From positions 1 to 13,093 of the forward strand of contig CAXHNU010000082.1 of assembly GCA_964017555.1 (NCBI GenBank): a stretch of DNA of 13,093 bases, written 5' to 3'. Shown piece after piece: positions 1 through 13,093 of the stretch; the stretch's first letter is position 1, and the number at the start of each line of letters is the position of its first letter. The translations under genes were made by a program, and so were the position numbers. This DNA comes from an uncultured Butyricicoccus sp. (GTDB lineage Bacteria > Bacillota > Clostridia > Oscillospirales > Butyricicoccaceae). The notes under the pieces are model-generated. The model had not been told where the DNA came from and ran no database searches. It saw only the letters and a program-made list of their open reading frames with translations.

Positions 1-43
1 GCCCCGGGACCCCGCCGCCTTTTGAAAAAGGCGGGCGAAAACT
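1..43 (-). terminator. GC-rich hairpin after the porB stop (possible operon terminator, partly outside the window)
   Basis: Minus-strand RNA CGCCCGCC-UUUUUCAAAA-GGCGGCGGGG starts 6 nt after the TAA stop. No U-tract is visible within the window. Confidence 0.25.
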
Positions 44-973
44 TTATTTACATTTGGCGGTCAGCACTGCCCATTTATGGTCAACCCATTTTTGGGCTTC
101 TTCAATCATCCATTCATTGCCTTTCTTAAAGCAATGTTTGAAGCGTCCTTGTACCTTCATAAATTCTTCTACAGGAAGTTTTTGTTTTGGTTCATAGGTC
201 AAGTGGTATTCACCCTCCACCACTTCAAACAATGGCCATACGCAACATTCCACGGCAAGTTTTGTCACTTCCGCGATATTTTCAGAAGGATACCGCCAAC
301 CACGCGGGCAAGGGGATAATACATTGAGAAATGCGGGACCAGGGGTATAGATTGCCCGGTGTGCTTTTTCATGCAAATCTTTAAAGTTGCCAAGGAACGT
401 GGACTGGGCAACATAGGGAATACCATGAGCAACCATAATTTCGGTCAAATCTTTTTTATTTTGGCGTTTGCCGCTGGAAGCGGAACCATATGGTGTTGTG
501 GTGGTATCGGCAAAGCGTGAGGTGGAAGAAGAACGCTGAATCCCTGTGTTCATATAGGCTTCATTGTCATAACAGACATAGACCATATCATGACCGCGCT
601 CCATGGCGCCGGAAAGCGACTGGAAACCGATATCATAGGTGCCGCCGTCGCCGCCAAAGGTGATAAATTTAAAAGTATCATCAATTTTGCCGCGGCGTTT
701 CAGGGCATTATAGGCAGCTTCTACGCCGCCGCAGGTTGCCGCAGCGTTTTCAAAGGCATTATGGATATAGCTGTCCATCCAGGCGGTATAAGGGTAAAGG
801 AAAGAGGATACTTCCAAACAGCCGGTTGCATTGGTGACAACCGCTTTATCTTCCGGGTTCAGTGCGCGCATGACTGCGCGGACTGTAATCCCTGCGCCGC
901 AGCCTGCGCATAAGCGGTGCCCGCCGACAAAGCGTTCCGGTTTGGAAAGCTCCTGTTTGAGATTATATGGCAT
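44..973 (-). CDS. porB: 2-oxoacid:ferredoxin oxidoreductase beta subunit (TPP-binding; pyruvate/2-ketoisovalerate synthase PorB/VorB type)
   Basis: 309-aa ORF with TPP-binding GDG motif region (FGGDGGTYDIG) and Cys cluster ligands (CAGCGAG) typical of OFOR beta subunits. Start ATG at 971-973 is preceded by GAGGAG. It is last in a coupled four-gene operon. Stop TAA is at 44-46. Confidence 0.88.
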   Translation of the reverse strand: MPYNLKQELSKPERFVGGHRLCAGCGAGITVRAVMRALNPEDKAVVTNATGCLEVSSFLYPYTAWMDSYIHNAFENAAATCGGVEAAYNALKRRGKIDDTFKFITFGGDGGTYDIGFQSLSGAMERGHDMVYVCYDNEAYMNTGIQRSSSTSRFADTTTTPYGSASSGKRQNKKDLTEIMVAHGIPYVAQSTFLGNFKDLHEKAHRAIYTPGPAFLNVLSPCPRGWRYPSENIAEVTKLAVECCVWPLFEVVEGEYHLTYEPKQKLPVEEFMKVQGRFKHCFKKGNEWMIEEAQKWVDHKWAVLTAKCK

Positions 974-1001
974 AGTATTGCTCCTCGCTTGTCATCAAGA
1001 A

Positions 1002-2183
1002 TTATTCACGCTGCCCAAGATGGCGGTAACGCGCGCCGGTATTGCCGGTGCGGATGATTTCATCCAGGGCATCAAAAATGGTTTCGCAGTCCTGCACGCG
1101 GAAATCGCGCCCGCCAAGCCCATAAACATAGTTAATGGTTTTGGGGCGGTGGTCAAGGTCATACAAAGCGCCGCGCACTTCCGCGCCCAGCGGGCCGCCT
1201 GCGTTTGAGAACGATTCTGCTTTATCCAAAATAGCAAGGGCTTTCAAATGCCCAAGGGCAGCGGCAAGTTCTTCCGCCGGGAAGGGGCGGAACACACGCA
1301 GTTTGAGCATCCCGACTTTTTTGCCTTGTGCGCGCAGTTTATCGACGGTAGCGCGGGCAGTGCCAGCAGAAGAACCGATCAGCAGTACCGCGGATTCTGC
1401 GTCCTCGAGCTGATAAGTTTCAAAGAAACCATAACTGCGCCCAGTCATTTCGCCGAATTTTTTGCCGACGGCAAGAATAACTTCTTTGGCATTTTTCATG
1501 GCTTCCACCTGACCCATTTTGGCGTCCATGTAATAGGGGGAAACGCCATAGGGACCAACGGCAAGCGGGTTGTCATGTTTGAGTAAGTAATGTTCAGGTT
1601 CATAAGTACCGACAAAGTTTTTCACATCGGCGTCGTCGCATAATTCTATATTTTCGACCGCATGGGAGGTAATAAAGCCATCCTGGCAGACCATCACCGG
1701 CAGGCGTACCGCCGGGTTTTCGCCGATTGGCATGGCTTGCAGGTAATTATCATAGGCTTCCTGGTTATTTTCGGCATAGATTTGAATCCAGCCGGCATCC
1801 CGTGCGCCCATGGAGTCGGAATGGTCATTGTTAATGTTAATGGGGCCGGACAGTGCGCGGTTGACACAAGCGAGTGTCACCGGCAGGCGGGAAGAAGACG
1901 CGACATAAAGCAGTTCCCACATCAGCGCAAGCCCACAGGAAGAAGTTGCGGTGACAGCGCGTGCGCCAGCGGCTTCCGCGCCAATACAGGTGGACATCGA
2001 AGAATGTTCGGATTCCACTGTGACATATTCGGTGTTGACCTCGCCGTTTGCGACATATTGGGCAAAATATTGGGGGATTTCAGTTGATGGGGTGATTGGG
2101 AATGCCCCCATCACATCAGGGTCAATTTGTTTCATGGCATAAGCCACGGCTTCATTGCCGGAAAGGCGATCTCGTTTAGCCAT
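1002..2183 (-). CDS. porA: 2-oxoacid:ferredoxin oxidoreductase alpha subunit
   Basis: The six-frame ORF extends to 2288, but the ATG at 2181-2183 (MAKRDRLSGNEAVAYAMKQ) is preceded by AAGGAGGAG and matches the conserved PorA N-terminus. Gives 393 aa. It overlaps the upstream delta-subunit stop by 8 nt, indicating translational coupling. Confidence 0.88.
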   Translation of the reverse strand: MAKRDRLSGNEAVAYAMKQIDPDVMGAFPITPSTEIPQYFAQYVANGEVNTEYVTVESEHSSMSTCIGAEAAGARAVTATSSCGLALMWELLYVASSSRLPVTLACVNRALSGPININNDHSDSMGARDAGWIQIYAENNQEAYDNYLQAMPIGENPAVRLPVMVCQDGFITSHAVENIELCDDADVKNFVGTYEPEHYLLKHDNPLAVGPYGVSPYYMDAKMGQVEAMKNAKEVILAVGKKFGEMTGRSYGFFETYQLEDAESAVLLIGSSAGTARATVDKLRAQGKKVGMLKLRVFRPFPAEELAAALGHLKALAILDKAESFSNAGGPLGAEVRGALYDLDHRPKTINYVYGLGGRDFRVQDCETIFDALDEIIRTGNTGARYRHLGQRE

Positions 2184-2487
2184 CTGCGTGCTCCTCCTTA
2201 TGGAATGTAATCGCCTGGAATGGGCAGACTTTTGCACAAATGCCGCAGCCCTTGCAATGGTCAAAATCAAAATCAAGGCGTTTGCCATCCGTCACCGGGA
2301 TGGAGGAATCCGGGCAATATGGCGCGCAAAGCAAACATTGTTTGCATTTGGATTCATCCCAAGTTGGGGTTTGGGTGCGCCATTCCCCGGTAATGGTCAG
2401 GCGGGCTGTGCCCGGCTCATAGATTTCACAACCGGGCGTCAGTTCATACCATTTGGATTGTTCATTGATATTTGCTGCTTTTTTCAT
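2176..2487 (-). CDS. porD: 2-oxoacid:ferredoxin oxidoreductase delta subunit (2x[4Fe-4S] ferredoxin)
   Basis: 103 aa with two CxxCxxCxxxCP ferredoxin motifs (CKQCLLCAPYCP and CKGCGICAKVCP). Its ATG overlaps the gamma-subunit stop (ATGA). GAGGTG RBS. Confidence 0.85.
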   Translation of the reverse strand: MKKAANINEQSKWYELTPGCEIYEPGTARLTITGEWRTQTPTWDESKCKQCLLCAPYCPDSSIPVTDGKRLDFDFDHCKGCGICAKVCPFQAITFHKEEHADG

Positions 2488-3062
2488 CCGATTTGCACCT
2501 CGCGCATGGATTTCGCCAGTGCATTCATATTGCCTTCAATAACTTGGGGCTTTGTGGAAAATTTATGTTGGAATGATGCTTTCATATCGCTGACAAAACG
2601 GTTTGGCTCCACAACGCCGGAAACCTTGACCGCAGCGGCAAGCATTGGGGTATTCGGGAAGTTTTTACCAAGAGTTTCCTCAGAAATGCGGCGTGCGTCA
2701 ATGGTGCAGACCTTGCCGGCATAGCCGTTGAGCATGGGGCGGATTTCTTCCGGAGTTTTTTCGGTGTTGATGATGATTGCGCCTTCATTGGACAGCCCAG
2801 CGGTCACATTGACCGATTCAAGCAAGGTTTCATCAACAACGACAACATAGTCGGGATTGTAAATATTGGAATGCACGGTGCAGCGTTCATCAGAAATGCG
2901 GTTATACGCGGTAATCGGTGCGCCCATACGTTCGGGGCCATATTCCGGGAAGCCCTGGACATATTTGCCCGATGAGAAAGCAGCGTCTGCAAGCAGTAAG
3001 CAAGCTGTTTTGGCGCCCTGACCGCCGCGCCCGTGCCAACGGATTTCAACTGGTTTGTTCAT
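2484..3062 (-). CDS. porG: 2-oxoacid:ferredoxin oxidoreductase gamma subunit
   Basis: 192 aa starting MNKPVEIRWHGRGGQGAKTA, the hallmark N-terminus of POR/VOR gamma subunits. Strong RBS AGGAGGAAAATACC before ATG at 3060-3062. First gene of the operon. Confidence 0.85.
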   Translation of the reverse strand: MNKPVEIRWHGRGGQGAKTACLLLADAAFSSGKYVQGFPEYGPERMGAPITAYNRISDERCTVHSNIYNPDYVVVVDETLLESVNVTAGLSNEGAIIINTEKTPEEIRPMLNGYAGKVCTIDARRISEETLGKNFPNTPMLAAAVKVSGVVEPNRFVSDMKASFQHKFSTKPQVIEGNMNALAKSMREVQIG

Positions 3063-3372
3063 GGTATTTTCCTCCTATCATCTTGTGAAAAGTGTTTCGT
3101 GACAAAATATAAAAAAGCAGCCGTCCGTAAAAGGACAGCTGCTGAAAAAGCGCTGTAAACCACCTGTTACCGTACCATCATACGTTCTCCTAGAATAACG
3201 GCAGGAGAAAACCGGCAAAGCCTACTTGCCCAAAGCAAAAGGGGGGTTCGGTGTGCAGCTCAGGAGTGATTTTCGGCAACGCGCGACTCGCACCGGGCTT
3301 GCACTGTCCCCGGTTCGCTGTGGCTTTTGCTGCGTGCTTACTCTCTCCGTCAAAGCCTTTATTTGTTTCATT
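3063..3372 (-). ncRNA. Structured 5' leader of the por operon (about 310 nt). Candidate T-box-like or riboswitch transcription attenuator with mutually exclusive antiterminator and terminator.
   Basis: A near-consensus promoter lies upstream. The terminator sits at the 3' end. An alternative pairing GUAACAGG (3163-3170) with CCUUUUAC (3127-3134), plus inner helix ACAGC/GCUGU around a 7-nt bulge UGGUUUA, would consume the terminator 5' arm. AGG-UGGUUUA-CAGCG resembles the T-box core AGGG-UGGNACC-GCG. GGAGAGAGUA sits near the 5' end like a T-box stem I start. Several internal hairpins are present (CCGGG..CCCGG at about 3268-3290; UUCUCCU..AGGAGAA at about 3177-3205). Confidence 0.45.
3104..3144 (-). 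terminator. Intrinsic terminator (attenuator) inside the por operon leader
   Basis: Minus-strand RNA CAGCAGCUGUCC-UUUUAC-GGACGGCUGCU (one G-U pair) is followed by UUUUUUAUAUUUU. The U-tract ends about 40 nt before the porG ATG, leaving no room for a separate promoter, so this is a regulatory terminator rather than a gene-end terminator. Confidence 0.7.
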
Positions 3373-3379
3373 GACTAAT

Positions 3380-3408
3380 AGTATAAACTGTTTCCCAGTT
3401 TGTTGCAA
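3380..3408 (-). promoter_or_regulatory. Sigma-A type promoter TTGCAA-N17-TATACT driving the por leader and operon
   Basis: On the minus strand, -35 TTGCAA is the reverse complement of 3403-3408 and -10 TATACT is the reverse complement of 3380-3385, with exact 17-nt spacing. Predicted TSS is near 3372. Confidence 0.55.
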
Positions 3409-3499
3409 CCGTGAAAAAACACAAAATCCAAGGTGAAATTCCGTCAGGTATGCACAGAAGTCCACCTGACATGGAAAAATAAAAATTTGTCCGCGAAGA

Positions 3500-4423
3500 T
3501 TATGCCATTTTCTTTGGGCTGCCATTGTCAAATGGCACATCATAATGGTGCAGCAACAGCCAGCCCGCGTCAAATTCGGCAGCATACTGCCCGGCAAGGT
3601 GCGCGGCGGTATCCATTGCGGATTCCATCAGTTCGGGTACGGATTCGGTGCGTTCGGTTTCGGGCTGCCATAGGTTATGCCATGCGGCGTGTTCCAGGTT
3701 CAGGCAATTCCATTCCGGCGGATCGATTTTCATATGGCTGGTCAGCAATGCGCCGCGCCCGGCAAGCCCTTCCAGCTTCTGCAACCCGTGGTAGATGGAA
3801 GCGTTTTCACTGTAAAGGAAGTTTTCCACAGTCAGCATTTCACGGAATGCGGCGCGCAGATCGGCAGTGCTGACACGCAGCCCATAAACTGTGCCAAGCA
3901 GGTAATGCAGCAGCACAGCCTGCACCGCAATTTCTTCATCCGACGCGGCATAATATTTGCCGGGGTCAAAATCGGTCACTGGCGCATGGTATTCCTGTTC
4001 ATACAAAGCATAATCAATATCGCTTTCAATCTGGCAATGGACTGCGGAGGGGTTTAGTTTGGGATCAGCTTCCAAACATTCATGCTGGCGGCAATAGACA
4101 TAGGGATGCACTGTGCTGTCCAATGCGTAATGGCACAAAAAGCCATAGAAATAGGCTTCTGCAATGGCACGGTTATCCCCTGTCATGCGGTTGACCGCGC
4201 GGGCAAATGCAAAAAACAATTCATCAGTGCATTCTGAGTGCATTTGGTTGCCATATTTGTGCAGCGGGCTGCCAAAAGCCAGCTTGCGATAAAAAAGCGG
4301 ATCGGGGCCTTGAAGCCCCCAATTAAAAGCAGCCGGACGCCGTACAGCGGCAAGCTGCACAACTGCGGGGAATTTATCCTGTACAAGTTCACCAAACAGG
4401 TAATGTGATACAAAATCTGCCAT
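3500..4423 (-). CDS. Zinc-dependent phospholipase C / nuclease P1-fold family protein, cytoplasmic (no signal peptide)
   Basis: 307 aa. N-terminal HYLFGE and the internal CHYALDSTVHPYVY motif align with the Zn-ligand motif HYLGDxxQPMH of B. cereus PLC-fold enzymes. RBS GGAGAGG. Stop TAA at 3500-3502. Confidence 0.55.
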   Translation of the reverse strand: MADFVSHYLFGELVQDKFPAVVQLAAVRRPAAFNWGLQGPDPLFYRKLAFGSPLHKYGNQMHSECTDELFFAFARAVNRMTGDNRAIAEAYFYGFLCHYALDSTVHPYVYCRQHECLEADPKLNPSAVHCQIESDIDYALYEQEYHAPVTDFDPGKYYAASDEEIAVQAVLLHYLLGTVYGLRVSTADLRAAFREMLTVENFLYSENASIYHGLQKLEGLAGRGALLTSHMKIDPPEWNCLNLEHAAWHNLWQPETERTESVPELMESAMDTAAHLAGQYAAEFDAGWLLLHHYDVPFDNGSPKKMA

Positions 4424-4457
4424 AGCAAAACCATCCTCTCCAAATGCGTTATCTCAT

Positions 4458-4466
4458 ATTATACAA
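4458..4466 (-). promoter_or_regulatory. Extended -10 promoter (TTGTATAAT) for the PLC-like gene
   Basis: The reverse complement of 4458-4466 reads TTGTATAAT (TGnTATAAT class), about 35 nt upstream of the start codon. No good -35. Confidence 0.35.
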
Positions 4467-4510
4467 CTTTTTGGCGGATTCGGAAAGGGAAAATCGAAAA
4501 TTCACAAGAT

Positions 4511-4553
4511 TTTTATAAAAAAACCCTTCCCGCACAAAGCCAGAAAGGGTTTT
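4511..4553 (-). terminator. Rho-independent terminator of the Mrp/NifX-like operon
   Basis: Minus-strand RNA AAACCCUU-16 nt loop-AAGGGUUU is followed by UUUUUUUAUAAAA. It begins about 10 nt after the TGA stop at 4562-4564. Confidence 0.7.
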
Positions 4554-4561
4554 AGAGTGAA

Positions 4562-5005
4562 TCAGTCAATTTTCGGCAGACTGCGCAATGCTTCTTCGGG
4601 CACATGGACAGGTCCACAGCCAGCGCATTTGGAACAGTCATGCATACACGCCATGGGGTCATTGGGATCTTCTTCGCGGCAGGCTTCTAAAATGCCGGGA
4701 TCGCCTTGTTTTTCGCCGACAATGAATTTTGCGGCGGCTTCTTCGGCTGCGCCGGTGACGCCAGGCACCAGCACAATGCCGAGCATTTCCAGCGCATTGC
4801 GCAGAGCAATGCCAAGCGCATTGCAGATAAATACATCTGCCTGCGCCATACTCACAAATGTCAGCAAAGCAGTCGGGCTGCTGCCGGGCGCGGCAGCAAG
4901 TTCCTTTGCACAGGGTGTGCCATTTTCCACAGTAACCAGCAGGTATTCCGGACAGCCAGCGGCGTCAGCAACCATGCCATCCTGACAGGCAATTGCAATT
5001 TTCAT
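4562..5005 (-). CDS. NifB/NifX-family (dinitrogenase FeMo-cofactor-binding fold, DUF134-like) protein with Cys-rich C-terminal tail
   Basis: Start chosen at ATG 5003-5005 (MKIAIACQDG), which has an AGAGGAAAA RBS. The six-frame ORF start at 5026 is a GTG overlapping the upstream stop. 147 aa. C-terminal motif ACMHDCSKCAGCG. Confidence 0.65.
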   Translation of the reverse strand: MKIAIACQDGMVADAAGCPEYLLVTVENGTPCAKELAAAPGSSPTALLTFVSMAQADVFICNALGIALRNALEMLGIVLVPGVTGAAEEAAAKFIVGEKQGDPGILEACREEDPNDPMACMHDCSKCAGCGPVHVPEEALRSLPKID

Positions 5006-5022
5006 GGAATTTTCCTCTACTT

Positions 5023-5841
5023 TCACAGCATATCTTCCAGCACACGCATTGCGCCATGTAATGCCTCCGGCAGTTTGACGTCCTCGATATCGCCGCGGTC
5101 AACCGCGGCGGCAAGGTTCGGGTCAAGCGGCAGCCGCGCAAGCACAGGCAAATCATATTCAGCGGCAACCGCGTCCAGCTTGCTTTTGCCAAAGACTTCA
5201 ATTTGCTTGCCGCAGTCCGGGCAGACAAGATAGCTGTAATTTTCGATGATGCCCACAATCGGGATGTTCATCATTTTTGCCATTTTTACCGCTTTGCCCA
5301 CAATCATCGAAACCAGATCCTGTGGAGAAGTCAGCACAATAATGCCGTCAACCGGCAGCGATTGGAACACAGTCAGCGGAACGTCGCCCGTGCCGGGCGG
5401 CATATCGACAAACATAAAATCGACATCTTTCCAAATCACATCTGCCCAAAACTGTTTTACGGTTTCGGCGATAATAGGGCCACGGTAAATCACCGGGTCG
5501 TCGGTATGGTCAAGGACAAAGTTAATGGAAACCATATCAATGCCGGTTTCAGAAGTTTTGGGGAAAATGCCTTCTTCACAGCCTTCCAGCCTGCCGCTGA
5601 CACCAAAGGCTTTTGGGATGGATGGACCAGTGATATCCGCGTCCAAAATGGCGGTATGATATCCTTTGCGGCACATGGCAACCGCAAGCATAGATGTTGC
5701 AAGGCTTTTGCCAACGCCGCCCTTGCCGGAAATCACGCCAATGACTTTTTTAATGCTGGATAGATTATTTGGTTTAACAAGCAGGCTTTCGGGTTCGCCG
5801 CAGCCAGCTTGGCAGGAATCGCAGTTATGTGAGCAACCCAT
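5023..5841 (-). CDS. Mrp/NBP35 (ApbC-like) P-loop ATPase, iron-sulfur cluster carrier
   Basis: 272 aa. Walker A GKGGVGKS and the conserved CPDC cluster-bridging motif are present. N-terminal extension MGCSHNCDSCQAGCG has 4 Cys. RBS AAAGGAGC. Confidence 0.85.
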   Translation of the reverse strand: MGCSHNCDSCQAGCGEPESLLVKPNNLSSIKKVIGVISGKGGVGKSLATSMLAVAMCRKGYHTAILDADITGPSIPKAFGVSGRLEGCEEGIFPKTSETGIDMVSINFVLDHTDDPVIYRGPIIAETVKQFWADVIWKDVDFMFVDMPPGTGDVPLTVFQSLPVDGIIVLTSPQDLVSMIVGKAVKMAKMMNIPIVGIIENYSYLVCPDCGKQIEVFGKSKLDAVAAEYDLPVLARLPLDPNLAAAVDRGDIEDVKLPEALHGAMRVLEDML

Positions 5842-5881
5842 AAATTTTCACAGCTCCTTTTAATTCAGTATCGTTGGCTTT

Positions 5882-5910
5882 AGTATATCGCATTTCGGGC
5901 TGTTTATCAA
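5882..5910 (-). promoter_or_regulatory. Sigma-A promoter TTGATA-N17-TATACT for the Mrp/NifX-like operon
   Basis: On the minus strand, -35 is the reverse complement of 5905-5910 and -10 is the reverse complement of 5882-5887. Spacing is 17 nt. Confidence 0.5.
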
Positions 5911-5926
5911 GGGAATTGTACAAAGA

Positions 5927-5963
5927 GCGCCGCCCCTGGCTGCCTGCGGCAGCCAGGAGCGGC
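5927..5963 (-). terminator. GC-rich hairpin (10-bp perfect stem CCTGGCTGCC-TGC-GGCAGCCAGG plus outer GCCGC/GCGGC) downstream of the flotillin gene. Putative terminator.
   Basis: It lies 26-60 nt beyond the flotillin stop (5989). The downstream minus-strand sequence GCUCUUUGU is only weakly U-rich, so termination efficiency is uncertain. Confidence 0.35.
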
Positions 5964-5988
5964 ATAAAGCCCAAAAGGGCATATTATA

Positions 5989-7380
5989 TTATTGTTCATC
6001 CGGCAAAGTGGGTTCAGCGGGCGGTTTGATGGGTGTGCCAAGGTAAGAAGGCATTTCAAGACCCGCTTGTTTGAATAAATCCTGCATTGGCGGGATCGCC
6101 TGCATCAGCCCGGATACAAAACCGGCTGTAGAGGATTTGCCGTCTTGGGCGCCATTGTCCCAAACGGTGACTTTATCAATTTTCAGATTGCTGATGGCAT
6201 CCACCTGGATACGGGTGAGTTCTTCCAGTTTATCCGCAATCATAAGCTGTACGGCGGCTTGTGGGTCGCCAGCGGCGGCGCTGACCAGCGCCGCAATACC
6301 TTTCGCTTGCTGCTCCAGAATTTCGCGTGCGCCGCGTGCTTCCGCTTCCATGCGAGCATAAATCGCGTCGGCTTCGCCGCGCGCCTTGCGGCGCGTGACC
6401 TCGGCTTCCGCCTCGGCAGCGATTTCCGCCTGCTGTTTATCGATTTCCGCTTTTACGATAATATCCGCCTGTTGGGTTGCTTTTTCCAGTTCGGCACGGG
6501 TTTGTTCTGCCTGTTGCTGGGCAATATAGGCTTCTTGTTTTGCTTTTGCTGCCTGTACGGCTTCTGCTGCGGTTGCCTGCCGCAAGGCTTCGGCTTCCTT
6601 TTCACGGCGGCGGGCTTCGGATTGAGCAACTTCAATTTTTGCGCTGTTTTCGCCATCAATCGCGGAGGCGTTTGCCGCCGCAACTTGTACGCGCTGATCC
6701 CGCTGGGCATTTGCCTGACCGATTTCACCGTCACGGTTTTTCTCCGCGACCGATTTTTTCGCGTCATTGATTGCTTTTGCGGCAGCTTCCTTGCCAAGCG
6801 CGTCAATATAACCGGATTCATCATTGATATCGGTGACATTGACGTTAATCAGCCGCAAACCGATTTTTTTGAGTTCAATTTCGACATTGTTAGATACTGC
6901 GACAAGGAATTTATCCCGATCGGTATTGATTTCCTCGATATCCATCGTGGCAATGACCAAACGGAGCTGACCGAAAATAATATCTTTTGCAAGTTCCTGG
7001 ATTTCGCTGAGTTTTAACCCGAGCAGGCGTTCCGCGGCATTTTGCATCACGCCGGGTTCGGTGGAAATGCCCACGGTGAACCGCGACGGCACATCAATGC
7101 GGATATTCTGCTTGCTGAGGGCGTTTTTCAGGTCAACACTGATGGAAATTGGGGTTAAGTCAAGGTATTGGTATGACTGAATCACCGGCACGATAAATGC
7201 CGCGCCGCCATGGATACATTTTGCAGTGCGGGTCTGACCATTTTTATCCGACCCGACCTTACCATAAATGACCAGGATTTTATCCGCGGGGCATTTGCGG
7301 TAACGCGACAAAATGGCAATCAACGCGGCAAACAGCACCACCACAATGATGCAGATTGAAATAAGAAGCTGGAATGGCAT
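5989..7380 (-). CDS. floT: Flotillin / SPFH (band-7) domain protein, FloT/YqiK-like
   Basis: Start chosen at ATG 7378-7380 (MPFQLLISICIIVVV, N-terminal TM hairpin) with RBS AAGGAGGAAAAAT. The six-frame ORF extends 17 codons further without an RBS. SPFH domain is followed by a long Ala/Glu/Gln-rich coiled-coil, typical of flotillins. Confidence 0.85.
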   Translation of the reverse strand: MPFQLLISICIIVVVLFAALIAILSRYRKCPADKILVIYGKVGSDKNGQTRTAKCIHGGAAFIVPVIQSYQYLDLTPISISVDLKNALSKQNIRIDVPSRFTVGISTEPGVMQNAAERLLGLKLSEIQELAKDIIFGQLRLVIATMDIEEINTDRDKFLVAVSNNVEIELKKIGLRLINVNVTDINDESGYIDALGKEAAAKAINDAKKSVAEKNRDGEIGQANAQRDQRVQVAAANASAIDGENSAKIEVAQSEARRREKEAEALRQATAAEAVQAAKAKQEAYIAQQQAEQTRAELEKATQQADIIVKAEIDKQQAEIAAEAEAEVTRRKARGEADAIYARMEAEARGAREILEQQAKGIAALVSAAAGDPQAAVQLMIADKLEELTRIQVDAISNLKIDKVTVWDNGAQDGKSSTAGFVSGLMQAIPPMQDLFKQAGLEMPSYLGTPIKPPAEPTLPDEQ

Positions 7381-7443
7381 ATTTTTCCTCCTTTTCTGTG
7401 ACACATGATGTGGATCGTTTATTTTCTGCAAAAGGGTACTTAT

Positions 7444-8115
7444 TTATGTTTCTTCCCGTTCCACAATGAGCATATCCCCCCGCAAATCGACAATACGTAC
7501 ACTGGTACCGGTTGGAATTGCGTCGCCTTCCGTAATGGCACTGCATTCCCGCAGCTGTCCCTGCACCTGTACCATCACCTTGCCGGGGCTTACACCCTTG
7601 GCAGCAATCGGCAGATAGACCCGCCCATTTTCGCCGATGGCGTTTTTTAAGCTGATGGTACCATTTTCCGCGAGTTTTGACGAAGCCTGCACCAATTTTG
7701 CCACCAAAAACATCGCAATGCCGCCCAGCACCAAACCAAACAGCAAGCTGAATAATGGTTCTGTGCCCGCGTGGATGGATGCAATGGATGACCAGGAAAA
7801 CACGGTTAAAAATGCAACAATGGTTTGCAGCGTCAGCAGGCGCATGGCTGTGGCATCGCCAGGGCTGCTGCCATCTGTATAATGCTGGATATCCATTTGG
7901 TCAGGCATATCAAAATCCAAACTCACATCCACGCCATCCGGCACATCCAGGTCAAGCCCGGAAGTATCGCTGTAATTGACACCTTCCCCGCTGTCACTGC
8001 CAAGCATACTCATCAGCGTTTGGATCACAAGCAGCAAGGTGGACGGCACCGCCATGCAGTAAAGCACCCGCAAGATATCGCTGAGGCTTTCCCACCATAC
8101 TATCATTTGTTCCAT
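7444..8115 (-). CDS. NfeD-family membrane protein (YuaF-like flotillin partner with C-terminal OB-fold)
   Basis: Start chosen at ATG 8113-8115 (MEQMIVWWESL) with RBS AAAGGGGG. Hydrophobic TM region, then an OB-fold-like C-terminus (VMVQVQGQLRECSAITEG..VRIVDLRGDMLIVE). Lies 63 nt upstream of the flotillin gene, the conserved NfeD-flotillin operon arrangement. Confidence 0.75.
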   Translation of the reverse strand: MEQMIVWWESLSDILRVLYCMAVPSTLLLVIQTLMSMLGSDSGEGVNYSDTSGLDLDVPDGVDVSLDFDMPDQMDIQHYTDGSSPGDATAMRLLTLQTIVAFLTVFSWSSIASIHAGTEPLFSLLFGLVLGGIAMFLVAKLVQASSKLAENGTISLKNAIGENGRVYLPIAAKGVSPGKVMVQVQGQLRECSAITEGDAIPTGTSVRIVDLRGDMLIVEREET

Positions 8116-8151
8116 ATGGCAGCCCCCTTTCCGATTCATTCGCCTCAAAAG

Positions 8152-8166
8152 GTAAATTTAATTTAC
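8152..8166. promoter_or_regulatory. Perfect 7-1-7 inverted repeat GTAAATT-T-AATTTAC (operator O1), immediately downstream of the NfeD promoter -10
   Basis: Palindrome read directly from the sequence. It covers about +1 to +20 of the predicted NfeD-flotillin transcript, a classic repressor position. Confidence 0.5.
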
Positions 8167-8170
8167 ACAC

Positions 8171-8199
8171 ATTATACGCCAGCGTTAAGATTTTGTCAA
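8171..8199 (-). promoter_or_regulatory. Consensus sigma-A promoter TTGACA-N17-TATAAT for the NfeD-flotillin operon
   Basis: On the minus strand, -35 TTGACA is the reverse complement of 8194-8199 and -10 TATAAT is the reverse complement of 8171-8176. Exact 17-nt spacer. Confidence 0.6.
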
Positions 8200-8236
8200 T
8201 TACAATCGTGTTACATCCAAAAAAATAATTTCCCTC

Positions 8237-8265
8237 TTGCTATTTGCACAATGGTCAGGTATACT
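8237..8265 (+). promoter_or_regulatory. Sigma-A promoter TTGCTA-N17-TATACT for the XRE regulator gene
   Basis: -35 at 8237-8242, -10 at 8260-8265, 17-nt spacer. Confidence 0.5.
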
Positions 8266-8269
8266 TTTA

Positions 8270-8284
8270 GTAAATTATACTTAC
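8270..8284. promoter_or_regulatory. Imperfect copy of the operator (GTAAATT-A-TACTTAC, O2) overlapping the start of the XRE transcript
   Basis: Shares the half-site GTAAATT with O1. The second half matches 5 of 7. Sits between the -10 and the RBS of the XRE gene. Confidence 0.35.
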
Positions 8285-8303
8285 GTCAGAAGGGGTGGTT
8301 ATC

Positions 8304-8903
8304 ATGCCGGCATCTGGGCTGGGGAAAAAACTAAAAGAAGCGCGCCTTGCCAAAAAAATGACGCAAGCCGAAGTTGTCGGCAATTTTATCACCCGCAATA
8401 TGCTCAGCCAGATTGAAAGCGGCGCGGCTATGCCGTCGGTGAAAACCTTATCTTATTTGGCTGGCGTGTTGGATATCCCGCTGTCCGAGCTAATGGGCGA
8501 CGGCGATGGGCATGACGAAGCGCTGGACAGCTTCCAAATCCTTCAGGATGCAAAAAAGCGTTTATATGCCGCTGATTATACCGGTGTTCTTATTTTATGC
8601 GAAACCATGCCGGATATTATTCAAGATGAATTATCCGCGCTTGGGGCACGCGCCTGTCTTGGGCTGGCGCGTGCGATGATTGAAAAAGATGCGTTGGCAG
8701 ATATCACCCGCTTGATGCGGCAGGCAATCCAATATGCCAGCCAGGGACTGTATGCCAATGAAGCGCTTGCCGCGGAATGCGCGCTGCTGCTTAACCAGCA
8801 AGCCACCCGGCTTGGGCAATATTACCTGTCGCTGGCGGCGCCAGGACTGCCGGACACACAAAAAACAGCAGCCCCGGCGGATCAGCCGGAAGCTGCTGAG
8901 TGA
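8304..8903 (+). CDS. XRE-family (Cro/CI-type HTH) transcriptional regulator with an alpha-helical C-terminal domain
   Basis: Start chosen at ATG 8304 (MPASGLGKKLKEARL) with RBS GAAGGGGTGG. The six-frame ORF begins at an upstream GTG. The HTH region (LKEARLAKKMTQAEVVGNFITRNMLSQIESG) is typical of XRE. 199 aa. Confidence 0.75.
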   Translation: MPASGLGKKLKEARLAKKMTQAEVVGNFITRNMLSQIESGAAMPSVKTLSYLAGVLDIPLSELMGDGDGHDEALDSFQILQDAKKRLYAADYTGVLILCETMPDIIQDELSALGARACLGLARAMIEKDALADITRLMRQAIQYASQGLYANEALAAECALLLNQQATRLGQYYLSLAAPGLPDTQKTAAPADQPEAAE

Positions 8904-8932
8904 AATTGGAAAAGGAGCTGCAACTTTCAGTT

Positions 8933-10129
8933 TTAGCCTGCGGTGGCGTTGACTGGTTTTTCCGCTTTGCTGTTCATCACAACTTTGAGCAGGATTGGGG
9001 TAATGAGGGTTGTGACAATGACCACAAGCACAATGGCGGGGAACATATGGGCATCCACCAGCCCAACAGCGGCGCCTTTCTGCGCGACAATCAGCGCGAC
9101 TTCCCCGCGTGATACCATGCCTACACCAATGGATAAGGCTTCATGCCCATTAAAGCCGCAGGCACGTGCGCCCAGCCCGCAGCCCGCGACCTTGCTGAGC
9201 ACAGCAACAACAAGCAAGGCAAATGAGAAAAGAAGGATTTCGGCATTCATGCCATCCAGCACGGTTTTAATGCCAATAGACGCAAAGAAAATCGGAGAAA
9301 AGAACATATAGTTCATCACATTGATTTTTTTCGCGACATATTCGCGCAAATCCATGATATTACATAAGATAAGCCCGGCAAAATAAGCGCCAGTAATATC
9401 AGCAATGCCAAAATAGCGTTCAGAGATATAGGCGAGGATGAGGCAAAACGCAATGGACATAATGGCAAGGCGGCGATGGTTTGCCCAAATAACATCCATC
9501 CGCTGAAACGCATGATAAAAAACCAGCGCAACCACAGCAATAAAGACAAAAAACATACCAATCCGCGCAAAAACCATCAGCGGCACCACGGTAGGATCAG
9601 CAAACCCACTGATAACGGTTAAAATAATAATGCCAAGGATATCGTCAATCACTGCGGCGCCTAAAATCGCAATGCCGACTCTGCCTTTGAGTTTGCCCAT
9701 TTCGCGCAGGGTTTCCACCGTGATGGAAACTGAAGTCGCGGTCAGCACAACGCCGATAAACAATGCCTTGAGGAAATCCAAAGCATCAGTGGTATCGCGG
9801 AAAAACAGTTCATAGCAAATGGTACCGCCAATCAACGGCACAATAACGCCGATTAATGCAATGACAAAAGAAGCAACACCGGTTTTTTTGAGTTCGCTGA
9901 GGTCGGTATCCAAACCAGCCAGAAACATTAGCATAATGACGCCGATTTCCGATGTTTTCAGCAAGAAATCGGTTTCGCTAACGGCATTCAGCACCGAAGG
10001 CCCCAGCAAAATGCCTGCCAGCAGTGCGCCGACAACCTGCGGCATATGGATACGTTCTGAAATCAGCCCAAGCAGTTTGGTGGACAACAAAATAATTGCA
10101 ATAATTACCAAGAAATCATAGGATTCCAT
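8933..10129 (-). CDS. Cation:proton antiporter, CPA2 family (Na+/H+ or K+/H+ exchanger, NapA/KefB-like, no KTN domain)
   Basis: 398-aa polytopic membrane protein. N-terminus MESYDFLVIIAIILLSTKLLGLISERIHMPQVVGALLAGILLGPSVLN is diagnostic of Na_H_Exchanger family proteins. RBS AAAGGGAG. Confidence 0.85.
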   Translation of the reverse strand: MESYDFLVIIAIILLSTKLLGLISERIHMPQVVGALLAGILLGPSVLNAVSETDFLLKTSEIGVIMLMFLAGLDTDLSELKKTGVASFVIALIGVIVPLIGGTICYELFFRDTTDALDFLKALFIGVVLTATSVSITVETLREMGKLKGRVGIAILGAAVIDDILGIIILTVISGFADPTVVPLMVFARIGMFFVFIAVVALVFYHAFQRMDVIWANHRRLAIMSIAFCLILAYISERYFGIADITGAYFAGLILCNIMDLREYVAKKINVMNYMFFSPIFFASIGIKTVLDGMNAEILLFSFALLVVAVLSKVAGCGLGARACGFNGHEALSIGVGMVSRGEVALIVAQKGAAVGLVDAHMFPAIVLVVIVTTLITPILLKVVMNSKAEKPVNATAG

Positions 10130-10143
10130 TTTGATTCACACTC

Positions 10144-10192
10144 CCTTTGCAGAAAGGGGCAAGCCCCCGTTTTTTTATCAGCACAAGTATAG
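10144..10192 (-). promoter_or_regulatory. Antiporter promoter (extended -10 TGCTATACT) and structured 5' UTR with two overlapping hairpins, one of which sequesters the RBS
   Basis: TGCTATACT is the reverse complement of 10184-10192. In the UTR, GGGGGCUUGCCCC (10156-10168) and CCCUUUCUGCAAAGGG (10144-10159, which contains the AAAGGGAG RBS) are mutually exclusive alternatives. Confidence 0.3.
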
Positions 10193-10286
10193 CACGATTT
10201 ATACCAGATGGCTGTTAAGATGTCGTTAAAGATTCCATTCGGGCGGCAGGCAATTTTTTTGATGATACCCCTTGTCTTATCGGGCG

Positions 10287-10295
10287 TGTTATAAT
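10287..10295 (+). promoter_or_regulatory. Extended -10 promoter TGTTATAAT for the two-component operon
   Basis: TG at 10287-10288 and TATAAT at 10290-10295. RBS GGGAAGGGGG before ATG 10327. Confidence 0.4.
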
Positions 10296-10326
10296 AAAAT
10301 GGGGGATTGGGAAGGGGGCGTTTTCC

Positions 10327-11448
10327 ATGATAAACCTTACAGCAAAAATAACCCATTGGGCGTCTGTCAACTGCCTGAAAACGGCAGCTATTTTATGCGC
10401 CGCTACCGCGGCAAATGCAATCTTACTGCAGCGTTTCCAAATGATCAGCAGCGCAACAGAATTATATACCTTGGGCGTTTTACTGGTGTCGCTAAACACG
10501 GCTGGCTATTTATGGGGCATTATTGCGGCTGTAGCAAGCGTGCTGTGCGTCAACTACTTTTTCACTTATCCGCCATTCCATCTGAATTTTACGATTGAAG
10601 GTTATCCGGTCACATTTCTGATTATGCTGACAGTTGCCATCACCACAAGCGCCTTGGGCGGGCGGGTCAAAAAACAACGGGAACTCGCCCGCGAACGCAC
10701 CCGCTTGACCGAAGAACGCCAGCGTATTTTAATTGAAACCGAAAAAGAAAAAATGCGGGGCAATTTACTGCGGGCGATTTCACATGACCTGCGCACGCCG
10801 CTGACTGGTATTTTGGGGGCGTCAGGCGCCCTGCTGGATAATGATGGGCTGATAGACCCGACAAGCCGCCGGGAACTGCTTTCCGGCATTCATGAGGACG
10901 CCGAATGGCTGCTGCGTATGGTGGAAAATATTTTATCCATCACACGGATTTCCGGCGGGGCATTGTCGCTGAAAAAAGTATGCGAACCACTTGACGAAGT
11001 GTTTTCCCAAGTTGCTGCCAAATCGCGCAAACGGTTCCCACAGATTGAATTATCCATACAAATGCCGGATAAAGTTGCACTTGTGCCCATGGATGAAATG
11101 CTGATTGTACAGGTGCTGATAAACCTTGTTGACAATGCCATGCTGCATGGGGGCGGCAATGCTGTCGCGCTTTCCGCGGAAATGGAAAATGATATGGTAC
11201 GAATTATTGTGCGTGACCATGGGCAAGGCATCCCGCCAGAGGATTTGCCAACTTTATTTGATGGGTTTGGTTCACGGGACAAAGAATCCAGCGATGCCAC
11301 CCGTGGGCTTGGGATTGGGTTATCCATATGCCGCACCATTGTAGAAGGGCATGGCGGGCATATTTTTGCCCGCAACCTGCCAGATGGTGGGGCGTCTATC
11401 AGTTTCACATTGCCGACAAAGGAGGCTGCATCTTATGCCGAATCCTGA
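10327..11448 (+). CDS. Sensor histidine kinase, minimal KdpD-like (DUF4118 membrane domain, HisKA, HATPase_c; lacks the KdpD N-terminal, Usp and GAF domains)
   Basis: 373 aa. Three to four TM helices with the KdpD-type motif FFTYPPFHLNFTIEGYPVTFLIMLTVAITTSALGGRVKKQ. H-box ISHDLRTPL. C-terminal GLGIGLSICRTIVEGHGGHIFARNLPDGGASISFTLP closely parallels the E. coli KdpD C-terminus. Confidence 0.85.
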   Translation: MINLTAKITHWASVNCLKTAAILCAATAANAILLQRFQMISSATELYTLGVLLVSLNTAGYLWGIIAAVASVLCVNYFFTYPPFHLNFTIEGYPVTFLIMLTVAITTSALGGRVKKQRELARERTRLTEERQRILIETEKEKMRGNLLRAISHDLRTPLTGILGASGALLDNDGLIDPTSRRELLSGIHEDAEWLLRMVENILSITRISGGALSLKKVCEPLDEVFSQVAAKSRKRFPQIELSIQMPDKVALVPMDEMLIVQVLINLVDNAMLHGGGNAVALSAEMENDMVRIIVRDHGQGIPPEDLPTLFDGFGSRDKESSDATRGLGIGLSICRTIVEGHGGHIFARNLPDGGASISFTLPTKEAASYAES

Positions 11449-12139
11449 AAAAATATTAGTGGTAGAGGATGAAACCACAATTTTACGCGTTTTAGAAACC
11501 ATTTTAGCCGCCAATGGATATCAGGTGTTATCTGCGTGCAATGGCACGCAGGCACTTTCCATGGCAAGTTCCCATTGCCCAGATTTAATCCTGCTTGACC
11601 TTGGTTTGCCAAATATGGATGGGACAGAGGTCATCAGGCATTTACGGGAATGGTCAGGCGTACCGATTTTGGTGGTATCCGCACGTGACCAGGAAGAAGA
11701 AAAAGTGCGGGCATTTGATTTGGGAGCGGATGATTATATTACCAAACCATTTGGCACCAGTGAATTGCTGGCACGTATCCGGGCAGCCCGCCGCCATGCG
11801 AATCAATTGGCAGCCGAACGGGCTTTGGTATCGCCATCATATGAATTTCAAGATTTCCGCATTGATTTTGAACGGCGGGTCGTTACCGTTGGTGGACGCG
11901 AAATCCATTTGACACAAAATGAATATAAAATTGTAGAACGGTTAGCGCGACAACCTGGGCGGGTATTGACATATGCAACCCTTTTGCATGATATTTGGGG
12001 GCCATATAAAGGGGAAGACAATCAAATTCTGCGTGTCAACATGGCAAATATCCGACGCAAATTAGAAAAGAATCCTGCAGAGCCGCACTATATCTTAACA
12101 GAAAATGGGGTAGGCTACCGCATGGCAGATGGGGATTGA
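11435..12139 (+). CDS. OmpR-family response regulator, KdpE-like
   Basis: Start ATG 11435 ([13 protein letters not shown]) with RBS AAGGAGG. Overlaps the kinase stop by 14 nt. Strong similarity pattern to KdpE ([54 protein letters not shown]). Winged-helix C-terminus. Confidence 0.9.
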
Positions 12140-12768
12140 CATAGGGGACATTGTTTTGCAAATGAATACGGCGCGGTCGCGCCAGTCGCACCCGTTGGTC
12201 CTGTCGGGCCTGTTGCGCCCGGGGTTCCGGCTGCGCCGGTTGCTCCCGTTGGCCCTGTCGGGCCTGTTGCACCGGGGGCTCCGGCTGCGCCGGTCGCGCC
12301 TGTTGGCCCTGTCGGGCCGGTTGCACCGGGGGCCCCGGCTGCGCCGGTTGCTCCCATTGGTCCTGTCGGGCCTGTTGCGCCAGTCGGACCCATTACAGTT
12401 AGCAAAGTGTAATCCGGAGAAGTGCCCGGCACACCCGTTGGGTTATCCCGGTTCACCTGATACAAAGCGCCATCATGCGAAACAACTGTACCCAATGGGT
12501 AATTTACCCCTGGTACAAATGGCTGTACCGCTTCTATCCCTGCGCCAGTAGGGCCAGTCGGACCGGTTGGCCCAGGCCGGCCTGGACATCCCGACATCCC
12601 ATCGCGCCCTCTTGGGCCGCGTGGACCAGTTGGGCCTGTTGGCCCAACCATGCCGCCCCCTGGTCCGGGACCGGGACCAGGGCCAGGTCCGGGGCCAGGG
12701 CCGCAAGGATTAAACGGCGGGCAGCCAGAACCGCCAAACATACCGCCATAATTGAACGGGTTCTCCAT
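12115..12768 (-). CDS. Collagen-like triple-helix repeat protein (GXT repeats; BclA/exosporium-like or surface fibre protein) with two collagen-like segments flanking a 50-aa non-collagenous core
   Basis: Strong RBS GAAGGAGG 7 nt before ATG 12766-12768. N-terminal Gly/Pro-rich (GP)x7 segment. First collagen-like segment ([13 protein letters not shown]..) has about 11 triplets and the second ([22 protein letters not shown]..) about 31. 3' end overlaps the convergent response-regulator gene by 25 nt. Confidence 0.7.
12191..12394. repeat. Tandem 54-bp repeat (about 3.8 copies) encoding the 18-aa unit [18 protein letters not shown] of the collagen-like protein
   Basis: Units begin at 12191, 12245, 12299 and 12353, with a few substitutions per copy. 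Confidence 0.8.
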
Positions 12769-12798
12769 CGAAAAACCTCCTTCTTCTGGATATCCCCC

Positions 12799-12814
12799 CT
12801 GCCCATATGGGCAG
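12799..12814. promoter_or_regulatory. Perfect 16-bp palindrome CTGCCCAT|ATGGGCAG, candidate operator upstream of the collagen-like gene
   Basis: Read directly from the sequence. Lies 5 nt past the stop of the upstream partial ORF and about 30 nt upstream of the collagen-gene RBS. The zero-length spacer makes an RNA hairpin unlikely and a dimeric DNA-binding site more likely. Confidence 0.3.
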
Positions 12815-12819
12815 AAAGG

Positions 12820-13093
12820 CTATTCCATACTATGTGCAGTATCCGCAGAAGGTGATTTTGCCATTTCCCGTTCTATCAGCACCATATTTTCTTTGAGCCG
12901 TTCATCCTGCGGTGCAAGTATAACCGCCTGTTTGATATCATCAAATGCTTGCTGCACCCGCCCTGTATAATAATATCCAAGCGACCGCAAATCCCAAGGC
13001 AGACTGCCCCATGCGCTGCTTTCACAGATATATGTCCGAGGACGCTCTGTAATAGATAATGCCTTATTTAACATATAAATCATGCCATCCCAT
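12820..13093 (-). CDS. Hypothetical protein with TPR-like helical repeat, 5'-truncated by the window edge
   Basis: The ORF is open to the window end. The first in-window Met is at 13081-13083, but the frame stays open through 13093, so the start is unknown. Sequence LGYYYTGRVQQAFDDIKQAVILAP resembles a TPR helix pair. Confidence 0.3.
   Translation of the reverse strand, partial: WDGMIYMLNKALSITERPRTYICESSAWGSLPWDLRSLGYYYTGRVQQAFDDIKQAVILAPQDERLKENMVLIEREMAKSPSADTAHSME

Follow-up and report, generated by a model that had tools for sequence, protein, structure and literature searches.

A two-gene operon in a 13,093-nt stretch of DNA from an uncultured Butyricicoccus sp. (GenBank assembly GCA_964017555.1, contig CAXHNU010000082.1, positions 1 to 13,093 of the forward strand; hereafter, the window) encodes an Mrp/NBP35-family ATPase (Mrp) and a small NifX-like protein (the partner). 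Each protein carries a short Cys4-His peptide, or arm, at the N terminus of Mrp and near the C terminus of the partner. Taken as a whole, the operon is a split MrpORP-like iron-sulfur (Fe-S) carrier pair, a known kind of system, with matched arms for which the literature searched gave no description. Comparison of the two arms across their families confirmed that their likeness is real and statistically solid.

The Mrp arm was located where the original prediction placed it, with MGCSHNCDSCQAGCG read at the N terminus of the ATPase. An alignment of 49 Mrp sequences shows no change at any of the four arm cysteines (C3, C7, C10, and C14) and conservation of at least 90% at H5. The looser pattern C-x-[HC]-x-C-x2-C-x(1-4)-C is present in the first 20 residues of 116 of the 120 closest Mrp homologs. 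The partner does end with a similar motif, DPMACMHDCSKCAGCGPV, followed by 14 residues, or by the 16 reported originally if these are counted from the last G of GCG. In a 57-sequence partner alignment that extends down to 52% identity, C120, C124, C127, and C130 show no variation, and conservation at H122 is 90% or more; the E-D-P-[DN]-D-P-M segment preceding the cysteines is conserved almost as strongly. The strict tail motif was found in 114 of the 120 closest partner homologs, and no other part of the protein is as well conserved as the tail, even in clades at 30%–40% identity.

Both arms contain the core M-x-C-x-H-[ND]-C-x-x-C-x(2,3)-C. Position by position, they align as Met at −2 (88% of tails and 83% of Mrp arms), Cys at 0, +4, and +7, His at +2, Asp or Asn at +3, and the last Cys at +10 or +11. 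The longer pattern first proposed as common to both, C-x-H-(N/D)-C-x-x-C-x(1,2)-G-C-G, therefore holds for the core but not at its end: the last gap spans three residues (x3) in Mrp and two (x2) in the partner, and the GCG of the window Mrp becomes NCG, SCG, NCS, or NCN in most Mrp orthologs. Alignment of the tail profile with the Mrp N-terminal profile by hhalign gave a probability of 96% (P = 4e-9) over 20 columns. None of 200 column-permuted N-terminal profiles reached the observed value of 34.2 (mean, 9.3; standard deviation, 2.6; maximum, 18.6); because these controls score far lower, the likeness depends on the order and spacing of residues and not on Cys content alone. A hidden Markov model (HMM) of the tail was also scored on 5,127 open reading frames (ORFs) from 75 loci, ferredoxin-type proteins included. 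Members of the tail's own family scored 40–57 bits, Mrp N termini up to 17.6 bits, and all other ORFs no more than 7.2 bits, with 18 of 61 Mrp N termini outscoring every other ORF. Chance or compositional similarity between two Cys-rich peptides was excluded by the permutations together with this ranking.

The original prediction had been made vulnerable to the motif proving to be a ubiquitous tail on unrelated proteins. This was not seen in the ORF ranking or in a scan of 596 Gb of representative genomes with the two family patterns, in which 99 stretches matched and 62 of them were family members. When clustered at 50%, the full-length tail-bearing family collapses essentially to a single representative (P0029), accompanied by fragments and by a small number of divergent proteins, P0253 and P0248 among them. 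In the PDB, no solved relative spans either arm; the sole match to the tail was a disulfide-rich plant peptide (E = 0.07), which was judged spurious. A reading of the tail as a Cys-rich peptide of the kind made on the ribosome and modified after translation (RiPP), or of the SCIFF-like kind, was also rejected: no radical S-adenosylmethionine maturase is nearby, and the tail belongs to a protein with a folded domain.

The identity of Mrp was clear from profile searches, in agreement with the original assignment. It belongs to PF10609 (281 bits; cut-off, 27.1), and it matched positions 1–234 of the NCBIfam model for MrpORP, NF041136, with 322.7 bits compared with 193 bits for ApbC. The deviant Walker A motif and the CXXC motif (C-P-D-C), recognized by the published definitions (GKGGhGK[ST] and a C-terminal CXXC; PMC6345978), are both invariant among the 49 Mrp sequences. 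The nearest solved chains are those of A. fulgidus (PDB: 2ph1 and 3kb1/6oby) and Cfd1 (PDB: 6g2g), and their alignments begin at approximately residue 26. In the AlphaFold2 model, the Mrp core has a predicted local distance difference test (pLDDT) score of ∼90, and residues 1–20 form a coil with pLDDT of 43–55. Neither PF10609, nor the MrpORP model, nor any solved structure includes the Mrp arm.

For the partner, the Pfam profile was less decisive: PF02579 scored 24.7 bits, slightly below its cut-off of 26.3. Profile and fold taken together nevertheless place it with the NifX/NafY/NifB C-terminal domain proteins (PF02579, IPR003731). The AlphaFold2 model has a core pLDDT of ∼90, and Foldseek matched it to PH0822, TM1816, MTH1175, the orange protein (PDB: 2wfb), and NifX (9ian_F) with E values from 3e-7 to 1e-3, which confirmed a NifX-type fold for the predicted structure. 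Homologs of the partner carry precomputed PF02579 matches and the NCBI NifB/NifX name, and the partner itself aligned with positions 265–363 of NF041136 (E = 2e-9, 37.1 bits). Its core lacks the HFGH and GxGH His motifs typical of distant relatives; of its cysteines it retains C18, conserved at 90% or more, and C61, which never varies. Residues 101–140 have a mean pLDDT of 47–68, falling below 50 at residues 125–132. Like the Mrp arm, the partner arm is beyond the Pfam domain, the MrpORP model, and the solved relatives, as had been proposed for both. The statement that the NifX-like gene stands outside any nif context was likewise borne out: neither the window nor any related locus that was examined contains nif genes.

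The gene pair is conserved across genomes, as the original prediction required. When 185,579 species were scanned, each represented by a single genome, 60 loci emerged. Almost all carry the titles Butyricicoccus, Agathobaculum, or Intestinibacillus (Butyricicoccaceae) or come from Clostridia metagenome-assembled genomes (MAGs); two are labeled Coprococcus eutactus and Bulleidia sp. Mrp lies directly upstream of the partner in 56 of the 58 informative genome loci, with a spacing of −4 to +33 nt; one of the two exceptions has no upstream sequence, and the other comes from a different clade. With metagenome loci added, Mrp is upstream in 124 of the 125 loci that have an x2-type tail and enough upstream DNA. 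The lone exception among these ∼125 loci (L114:1491-3441), in which an Agathobaculum-type NifX-like gene follows two genes resembling ribosomal proteins L3 and L4 (by eye) instead of Mrp, is probably a chimeric metagenome contig. A suggested pairing of Mrp with DUF134 did not survive: DUF134 is not in this locus and was found fused only to distant PF02579 relatives.

Features of the operon are collected in Table 1. The proposal of a two-gene operon with its own promoter and terminator was upheld by a promoter-like site upstream of Mrp, a hairpin downstream of the partner, and separate termination of the preceding flotillin/NfeD operon at 5964-5928, just upstream of the Mrp-pair promoter. The stretch containing the Mrp-pair terminator (4500-4565, 66 nt) folds with −20.5 kcal/mol (z = −4.3), and 0 of 200 shuffled sequences folded equally well. 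The partner start is best moved from the GTG at 5026 used in the earlier ORF; judged from the sequence, translation most likely begins at the ATG at 5005, which has GAGG 8 nt upstream and gives a protein of 147 amino acids, compared with 146–147 in homologs. Synthesis of the pair from one transcript with translational coupling is the best explanation of this arrangement.

Table 1. Features of the Mrp–partner operon in the window
Feature	Position	Strand	Basis or remark
Mrp/NBP35-family P-loop ATPase, iron-sulfur cluster carrier type, 272 aa	5023..5841	minus	
NifX/NifB-like (Di-Nase, PF02579-type) partner, 147 aa	4562..5005	minus	ATG 17 nt past Mrp stop
Candidate sigma-70-like promoter of the two-gene operon: TTGATA, 17-nt spacer, TATACT	5882..5910	minus	consensus scan, 10/12 positions
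Predicted intrinsic terminator, 13-bp stem and U7 run	4517..4553 (hairpin ~4520-4553, U-run to ~4517)	minus	RNA fold
Mrp N-terminal Cys4-His arm, residues 1–15, MGCSHNCDSCQAGCG, Cx3Cx2Cx3C	5797..5841	minus	
Deviant Walker A GKGGVGKS, Mrp residues 39–46	5704..5727	minus	sequence reading; invariant in alignment
C-P-D-C, Mrp residues 207–210, cluster-bridging CXXC of the family	5212..5223	minus	C207 and C210 invariant
Partner C-terminal Cys4-His arm, residues 116–132, DPMACMHDCSKCAGCGP, Cx3Cx2Cx2C	4610..4660	minus	

Among known systems, the closest is MrpORP of Desulfovibrio (DVU2109 / Dde_3202; PMC6345978), which has the same two modules in the same order and whose model, NF041136, is the top NCBIfam match for both window proteins. 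Because Mrp covers the first part of this model and the partner a later part, the operon can be read as a collinear, split version of MrpORP. In MrpORP, mutagenesis established the CXXC motif as the site that bridges a [4Fe-4S] cluster, which is transferable; the Di-Nase domain binds a [3Fe-4S]-like cluster; and the P-loop cluster is transferred to targets (PMC6345978). The same study cataloged 99 Mrp–Di-Nase fusions, some of them in Clostridia and with several independent origins. An origin from a split or fused ancestor, raised in the original prediction, is supported by the collinearity with NF041136, by the published MrpORP fusion, and by P0183, a 406-amino-acid metagenome protein of the same clade. 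P0183 is an in-frame Mrp–NifX-like fusion (PF10609 and PF02579) with both Cys arms present. Its NifX-like domain is missing ∼13 residues at the start, and the protein may be either a real fusion or an assembly or deletion artifact. The window pair consists of two coupled genes, whereas MrpORP is a single polypeptide and sits in an orp gene cluster; the window contains no such cluster and no further PF02579 or MinD-like genes. MrpORP also has four extra N-terminal cysteines (PMC6345978), but these are spaced CX3CX20CXC or CXCX5CX4C rather than Cx3Cx2Cx3C with a His. The partner arm has no counterpart in the MrpORP model.

Eukaryotic Nbp35, a scaffold of cytosolic iron-sulfur protein assembly, likewise has a four-Cys site N-terminal to its P-loop domain in addition to the bridging CXXC. 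The Nbp35 motif is CX13CX2CX5C, unlike the window Mrp, in which a compact Cx3Cx2Cx3C with a conserved His occupies the first 14 residues; Nbp35 is also not known to have a NifX-like partner. In eukaryotes, this protein binds an additional stable N-terminal [4Fe-4S] cluster, the role of which is unclear (PMC6345978). IssA from Pyrococcus furiosus (PF2025; PMC5524996) resembles the partner in joining a NifX/IPR003731 domain to an unstructured C-terminal tail that handles iron-sulfur species. The IssA tail, however, is ∼70 residues long, cationic, and rich in Gly and aromatic residues, has one Cys, and binds thioferrate electrostatically (PMC5524996), whereas the partner tail is acidic (REEDPNDP...), reads C-MHD-C-SK-C-AG-C, and has four invariant cysteines and a His in 11 residues. 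The orange protein ORP/Orp8 and NifX/NafY share the partner fold (2wfb, E = 1e-3; 9ian_F, NifX in the NifEN complex), but their cores are non-covalent binding sites for Mo-Cu or FeMo-type cofactors and they have no Cys4 tail, and no nif or orp genes are present here.

A likeness to the arms themselves comes from synthetic peptides. The ferredoxin maquettes FdM1 KLCEGGCIACGACGGW (16-mer) and CGGGCGGCGGC (11-mer) assemble [4Fe-4S] clusters in vitro (PMC10946529), and their Cys spacing, Cx3Cx2Cx2C, is identical to that of the partner tail; in the Mrp arm the final gap is one residue longer (x3). The maquettes are designed peptides, whereas the window arms are natural protein termini, and no natural terminal arm of this kind was found documented in the literature searched. 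The literature search also turned up no description of matched Cys4-His arms or of the linkage of the tail module to GluQRS described below.

Because the tail spacing equals that of [4Fe-4S]-binding maquettes of 11–16 residues, we read the arms as cluster binding. On balance, we lean toward an unfused MrpORP-type carrier pair in which each arm would hold a separate Fe-S cluster, probably of the [4Fe-4S] type, and the two proteins would act jointly in cluster storage or delivery. Mrp is the P-loop ATPase with the bridging CXXC site of its family and the partner the NifX/Di-Nase-fold protein, each fitted with a short, flexible terminal arm. The Mrp arm would take the role of the N-terminal cluster in eukaryotic Nbp35, the partner arm would supply ligands lost from the degenerate NifX core, and the pair would have up to three cluster sites. 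The low-confidence coil predicted for both arms in the apo AlphaFold2 models is as expected of metal-dependent segments.

Sequence, conservation, linkage of the genes, collinearity with MrpORP, folds, and arms placed beyond the folded cores are results of the analysis; metal binding, cluster type, and arm-to-arm transfer are inferred. Several observations weigh against such a carrier pair. The matches of Mrp and the partner to NF041136 (322.7 and 37.1 bits) are each below the MrpORP equivalog cut-off of 450. The Di-Nase motifs of MrpORP, CXHFGHCE and CDH, which are the proposed [3Fe-4S] ligands, are absent from the partner; at positions judged equivalent by eye, it has ...DAAGCPEY... and ...ICN..., so that only C18 of the first motif is kept. 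The paired proteins differ in the last Cys gap (x3 versus x2), and one member of the family, P0248, lacks the fourth tail Cys. The remaining difficulties come from tails and arms that occur apart from each other. When the family was extended with a profile of divergent members, further clades were revealed that retain the core E-[DN]-D-P-[ML]-x-C-[MLI]-H-D-C-x-x-C. In a P0253-like sister clade, the tail is ...CMHDCAKCMAGCHDRP, with the Cx3Cx2Cx3C spacing of Mrp, and the core lacks C18 and C61. This sister clade never adjoins Mrp, so the clade with the Mrp-like x3 spacing is the one unlinked to Mrp. Its tail gene is followed by the gene for GluQRS, the tRNA glutamyl-Q(34) synthetase, in all 6 loci that were looked up or came from genomes, and the count over every x3-type locus is 16 of 17; the upstream genes vary. 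An arm-bearing Mrp, P0239, has an ATP synthase operon downstream and no adjacent partner.

GluQRS was identified by its match to NF004314 (301.7 bits; cut-off, 256). In the sister-clade loci L061, L071, L072, L075, L076, and L077 (for example, L071:4001-5439), GluQRS begins 6–130 nt downstream of the tail gene, and the tails read CMHDCAKCMAGCH or CMHDCSKCSGCH. A further clade of tail proteins, represented by P0458, lies among glyoxalase genes. The NCBI accessions of a P0239-type Mrp (MGM9649121) and of a GluQRS-linked tail protein (MGM9649184) are 63 apart, which suggests that an arm-bearing Mrp and a tail-bearing partner are both present, at unlinked sites, in a single MAG. Together, the sister clade next to GluQRS, the P0458 clade, and the P0239 Mrp indicate that the arm is a module able to work without gene linkage to Mrp. 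A bolder extension, which we regard as speculative and rather improbable, is that the arm is a portable, natural, maquette-like cluster-carrying peptide placed on the Mrp N terminus and the NifX-like C terminus, a mobile arm through which the NifX-like protein would load or receive a metal centre from more than one client (Mrp for Butyricicoccus and Agathobaculum, GluQRS for the sister clade). Capture of an Mrp 5′ end may have put it there; the conserved Met that stands two residues ahead of the first Cys corresponds to the initiator Met of Mrp.

More distant PF02579 proteins (P0270, P0310, and P0311; P0273, P0276, and P0367) have long Cys/Gly- or Cys/His-rich linkers (for example, CEGGCGGCGGCGGGCGGCGG); an FKBP_C domain, taken as SlyD-like, follows these linkers, or DUF134 precedes the protein. 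Because other Cys/His-rich tails are common on distant Firmicutes PF02579 proteins, a metal-binding tail seems to be a general theme of the fold, and from sequence comparison the present tail appears as one sharply conserved version of it.

These findings bear on two other accounts of the arms. The arms may be functionally independent, their likeness reflecting the same ligand chemistry or a shared peptide ancestry with no hand-over between them and the operon link being specific to the clade. This is a serious possibility, if on the whole a doubtful one. It would accommodate the tail-bearing partners without an adjacent Mrp in two clades, the P0239 Mrp without an adjacent partner, the unrelated Cys/His-rich tails on many other PF02579 proteins, and the behavior of the arms across paired loci, where no clear signal of co-variation was found and differences track phylogeny. 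It fits poorly with adjacency and translational coupling that are near universal over three genera, with repeated fusion of the same two domains (PMC6345978; P0183), and with the apparent co-occurrence of both modules in one MAG even where they are unlinked.

The arms could instead be knuckles for zinc or another single ion with a structural or metal-chaperone role and no Fe-S cluster, which we consider unlikely. A set of four cysteines and one His spread over no more than 12 residues is able to coordinate Zn. GluQRS is itself a Zn enzyme, and SlyD-type FKBP proteins are metallochaperones, so the sister-clade tail gene directly upstream of GluQRS (6 of 6 looked-up or genome loci) and the distant PF02579 proteins with Cys/His-rich linkers fused to FKBP_C both lend weight to a single-ion site; because of the GluQRS link, a Zn-related role stays a live rival. 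A zinc ribbon consists of two CxxC knuckles with a β-hairpin of ∼10 or more residues between them. The arms do not have this layout: all four cysteines of each lie within 11–12 contiguous residues, and the contiguous Cx3Cx2Cx2C is the spacing of [4Fe-4S] maquettes rather than that of separated knuckles. Both host protein families also handle Fe-S or FeMo clusters (PMC6345978; PMC5524996), and the host organisms are strict anaerobes rich in Fe-S proteins. A narrower suggestion concerned the client and not the ligand. An operon for a four-subunit 2-oxoacid:ferredoxin oxidoreductase (OFOR; POR gamma, delta, alpha, and beta; 44-3062) lies ∼1.5 kb downstream, and the pair had been proposed to serve this adjacent Fe-S-rich enzyme, possibly as its dedicated maturation factor. 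A terminator and an unrelated phospholipase C (PLC)-like gene separate the pair from the OFOR operon, and OFOR is near the pair in the same species (L005) alone; the other related loci, which come from other genomes, all lack it there. The OFOR, flotillin, NfeD, and PLC-like neighbors recur only in the same species, so the idea has no comparative support; the lack of conserved synteny speaks against it, and we regard it as very improbable.

Other genes of the window were noted as well. Upstream of the pair, 5989-8148 (minus strand) encodes an SPFH/flotillin-like protein of 480 amino acids (PF01145) with a long Ala/Glu/Gln-rich coiled region, which follows an NfeD-like membrane protein; the two genes form a classic NfeD-SPFH operon with its own strong terminator (5964-5928). 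The PLC-like gene between the pair and the OFOR operon (3500-4423, minus strand) encodes a 307-amino-acid protein with a sub-threshold match to PF00882, Zn-dependent phospholipase C (23.7 bits; cut-off, 26.8), and is conserved in the same species only. Within the OFOR operon, the mechanical ORF for the alpha subunit (1002-2288, minus strand) starts 35 codons upstream of the gene-caller start (2183), so that it runs into the gene for the delta subunit; a shorter version of 393 amino acids agrees with the called genes in locus L001. At 12115-12768 (minus strand), there is a collagen-like protein of GPT/GAT triplet repeats that resembles exosporium/BclA-type proteins of spore formers.

With this family, a small and soluble pair that is split by nature becomes available from gut anaerobes that can be cultivated (Butyricicoccus pullicaecorum and Agathobaculum butyriciproducens). 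Its candidate ligand peptides, MGCSHNCDSCQAGCGE in Mrp and DPMACMHDCSKCAGCGPV in the partner, are 11–15 residues long and lie at free termini, where they are open to deletion, swapping, and synthesis. If the arms do not bind clusters, the locus would be an ordinary Mrp operon with a decorated partner. If they do, designed ferredoxin maquettes would have a counterpart in nature, and the arms would provide a handle on Fe-S trafficking in strict anaerobes.

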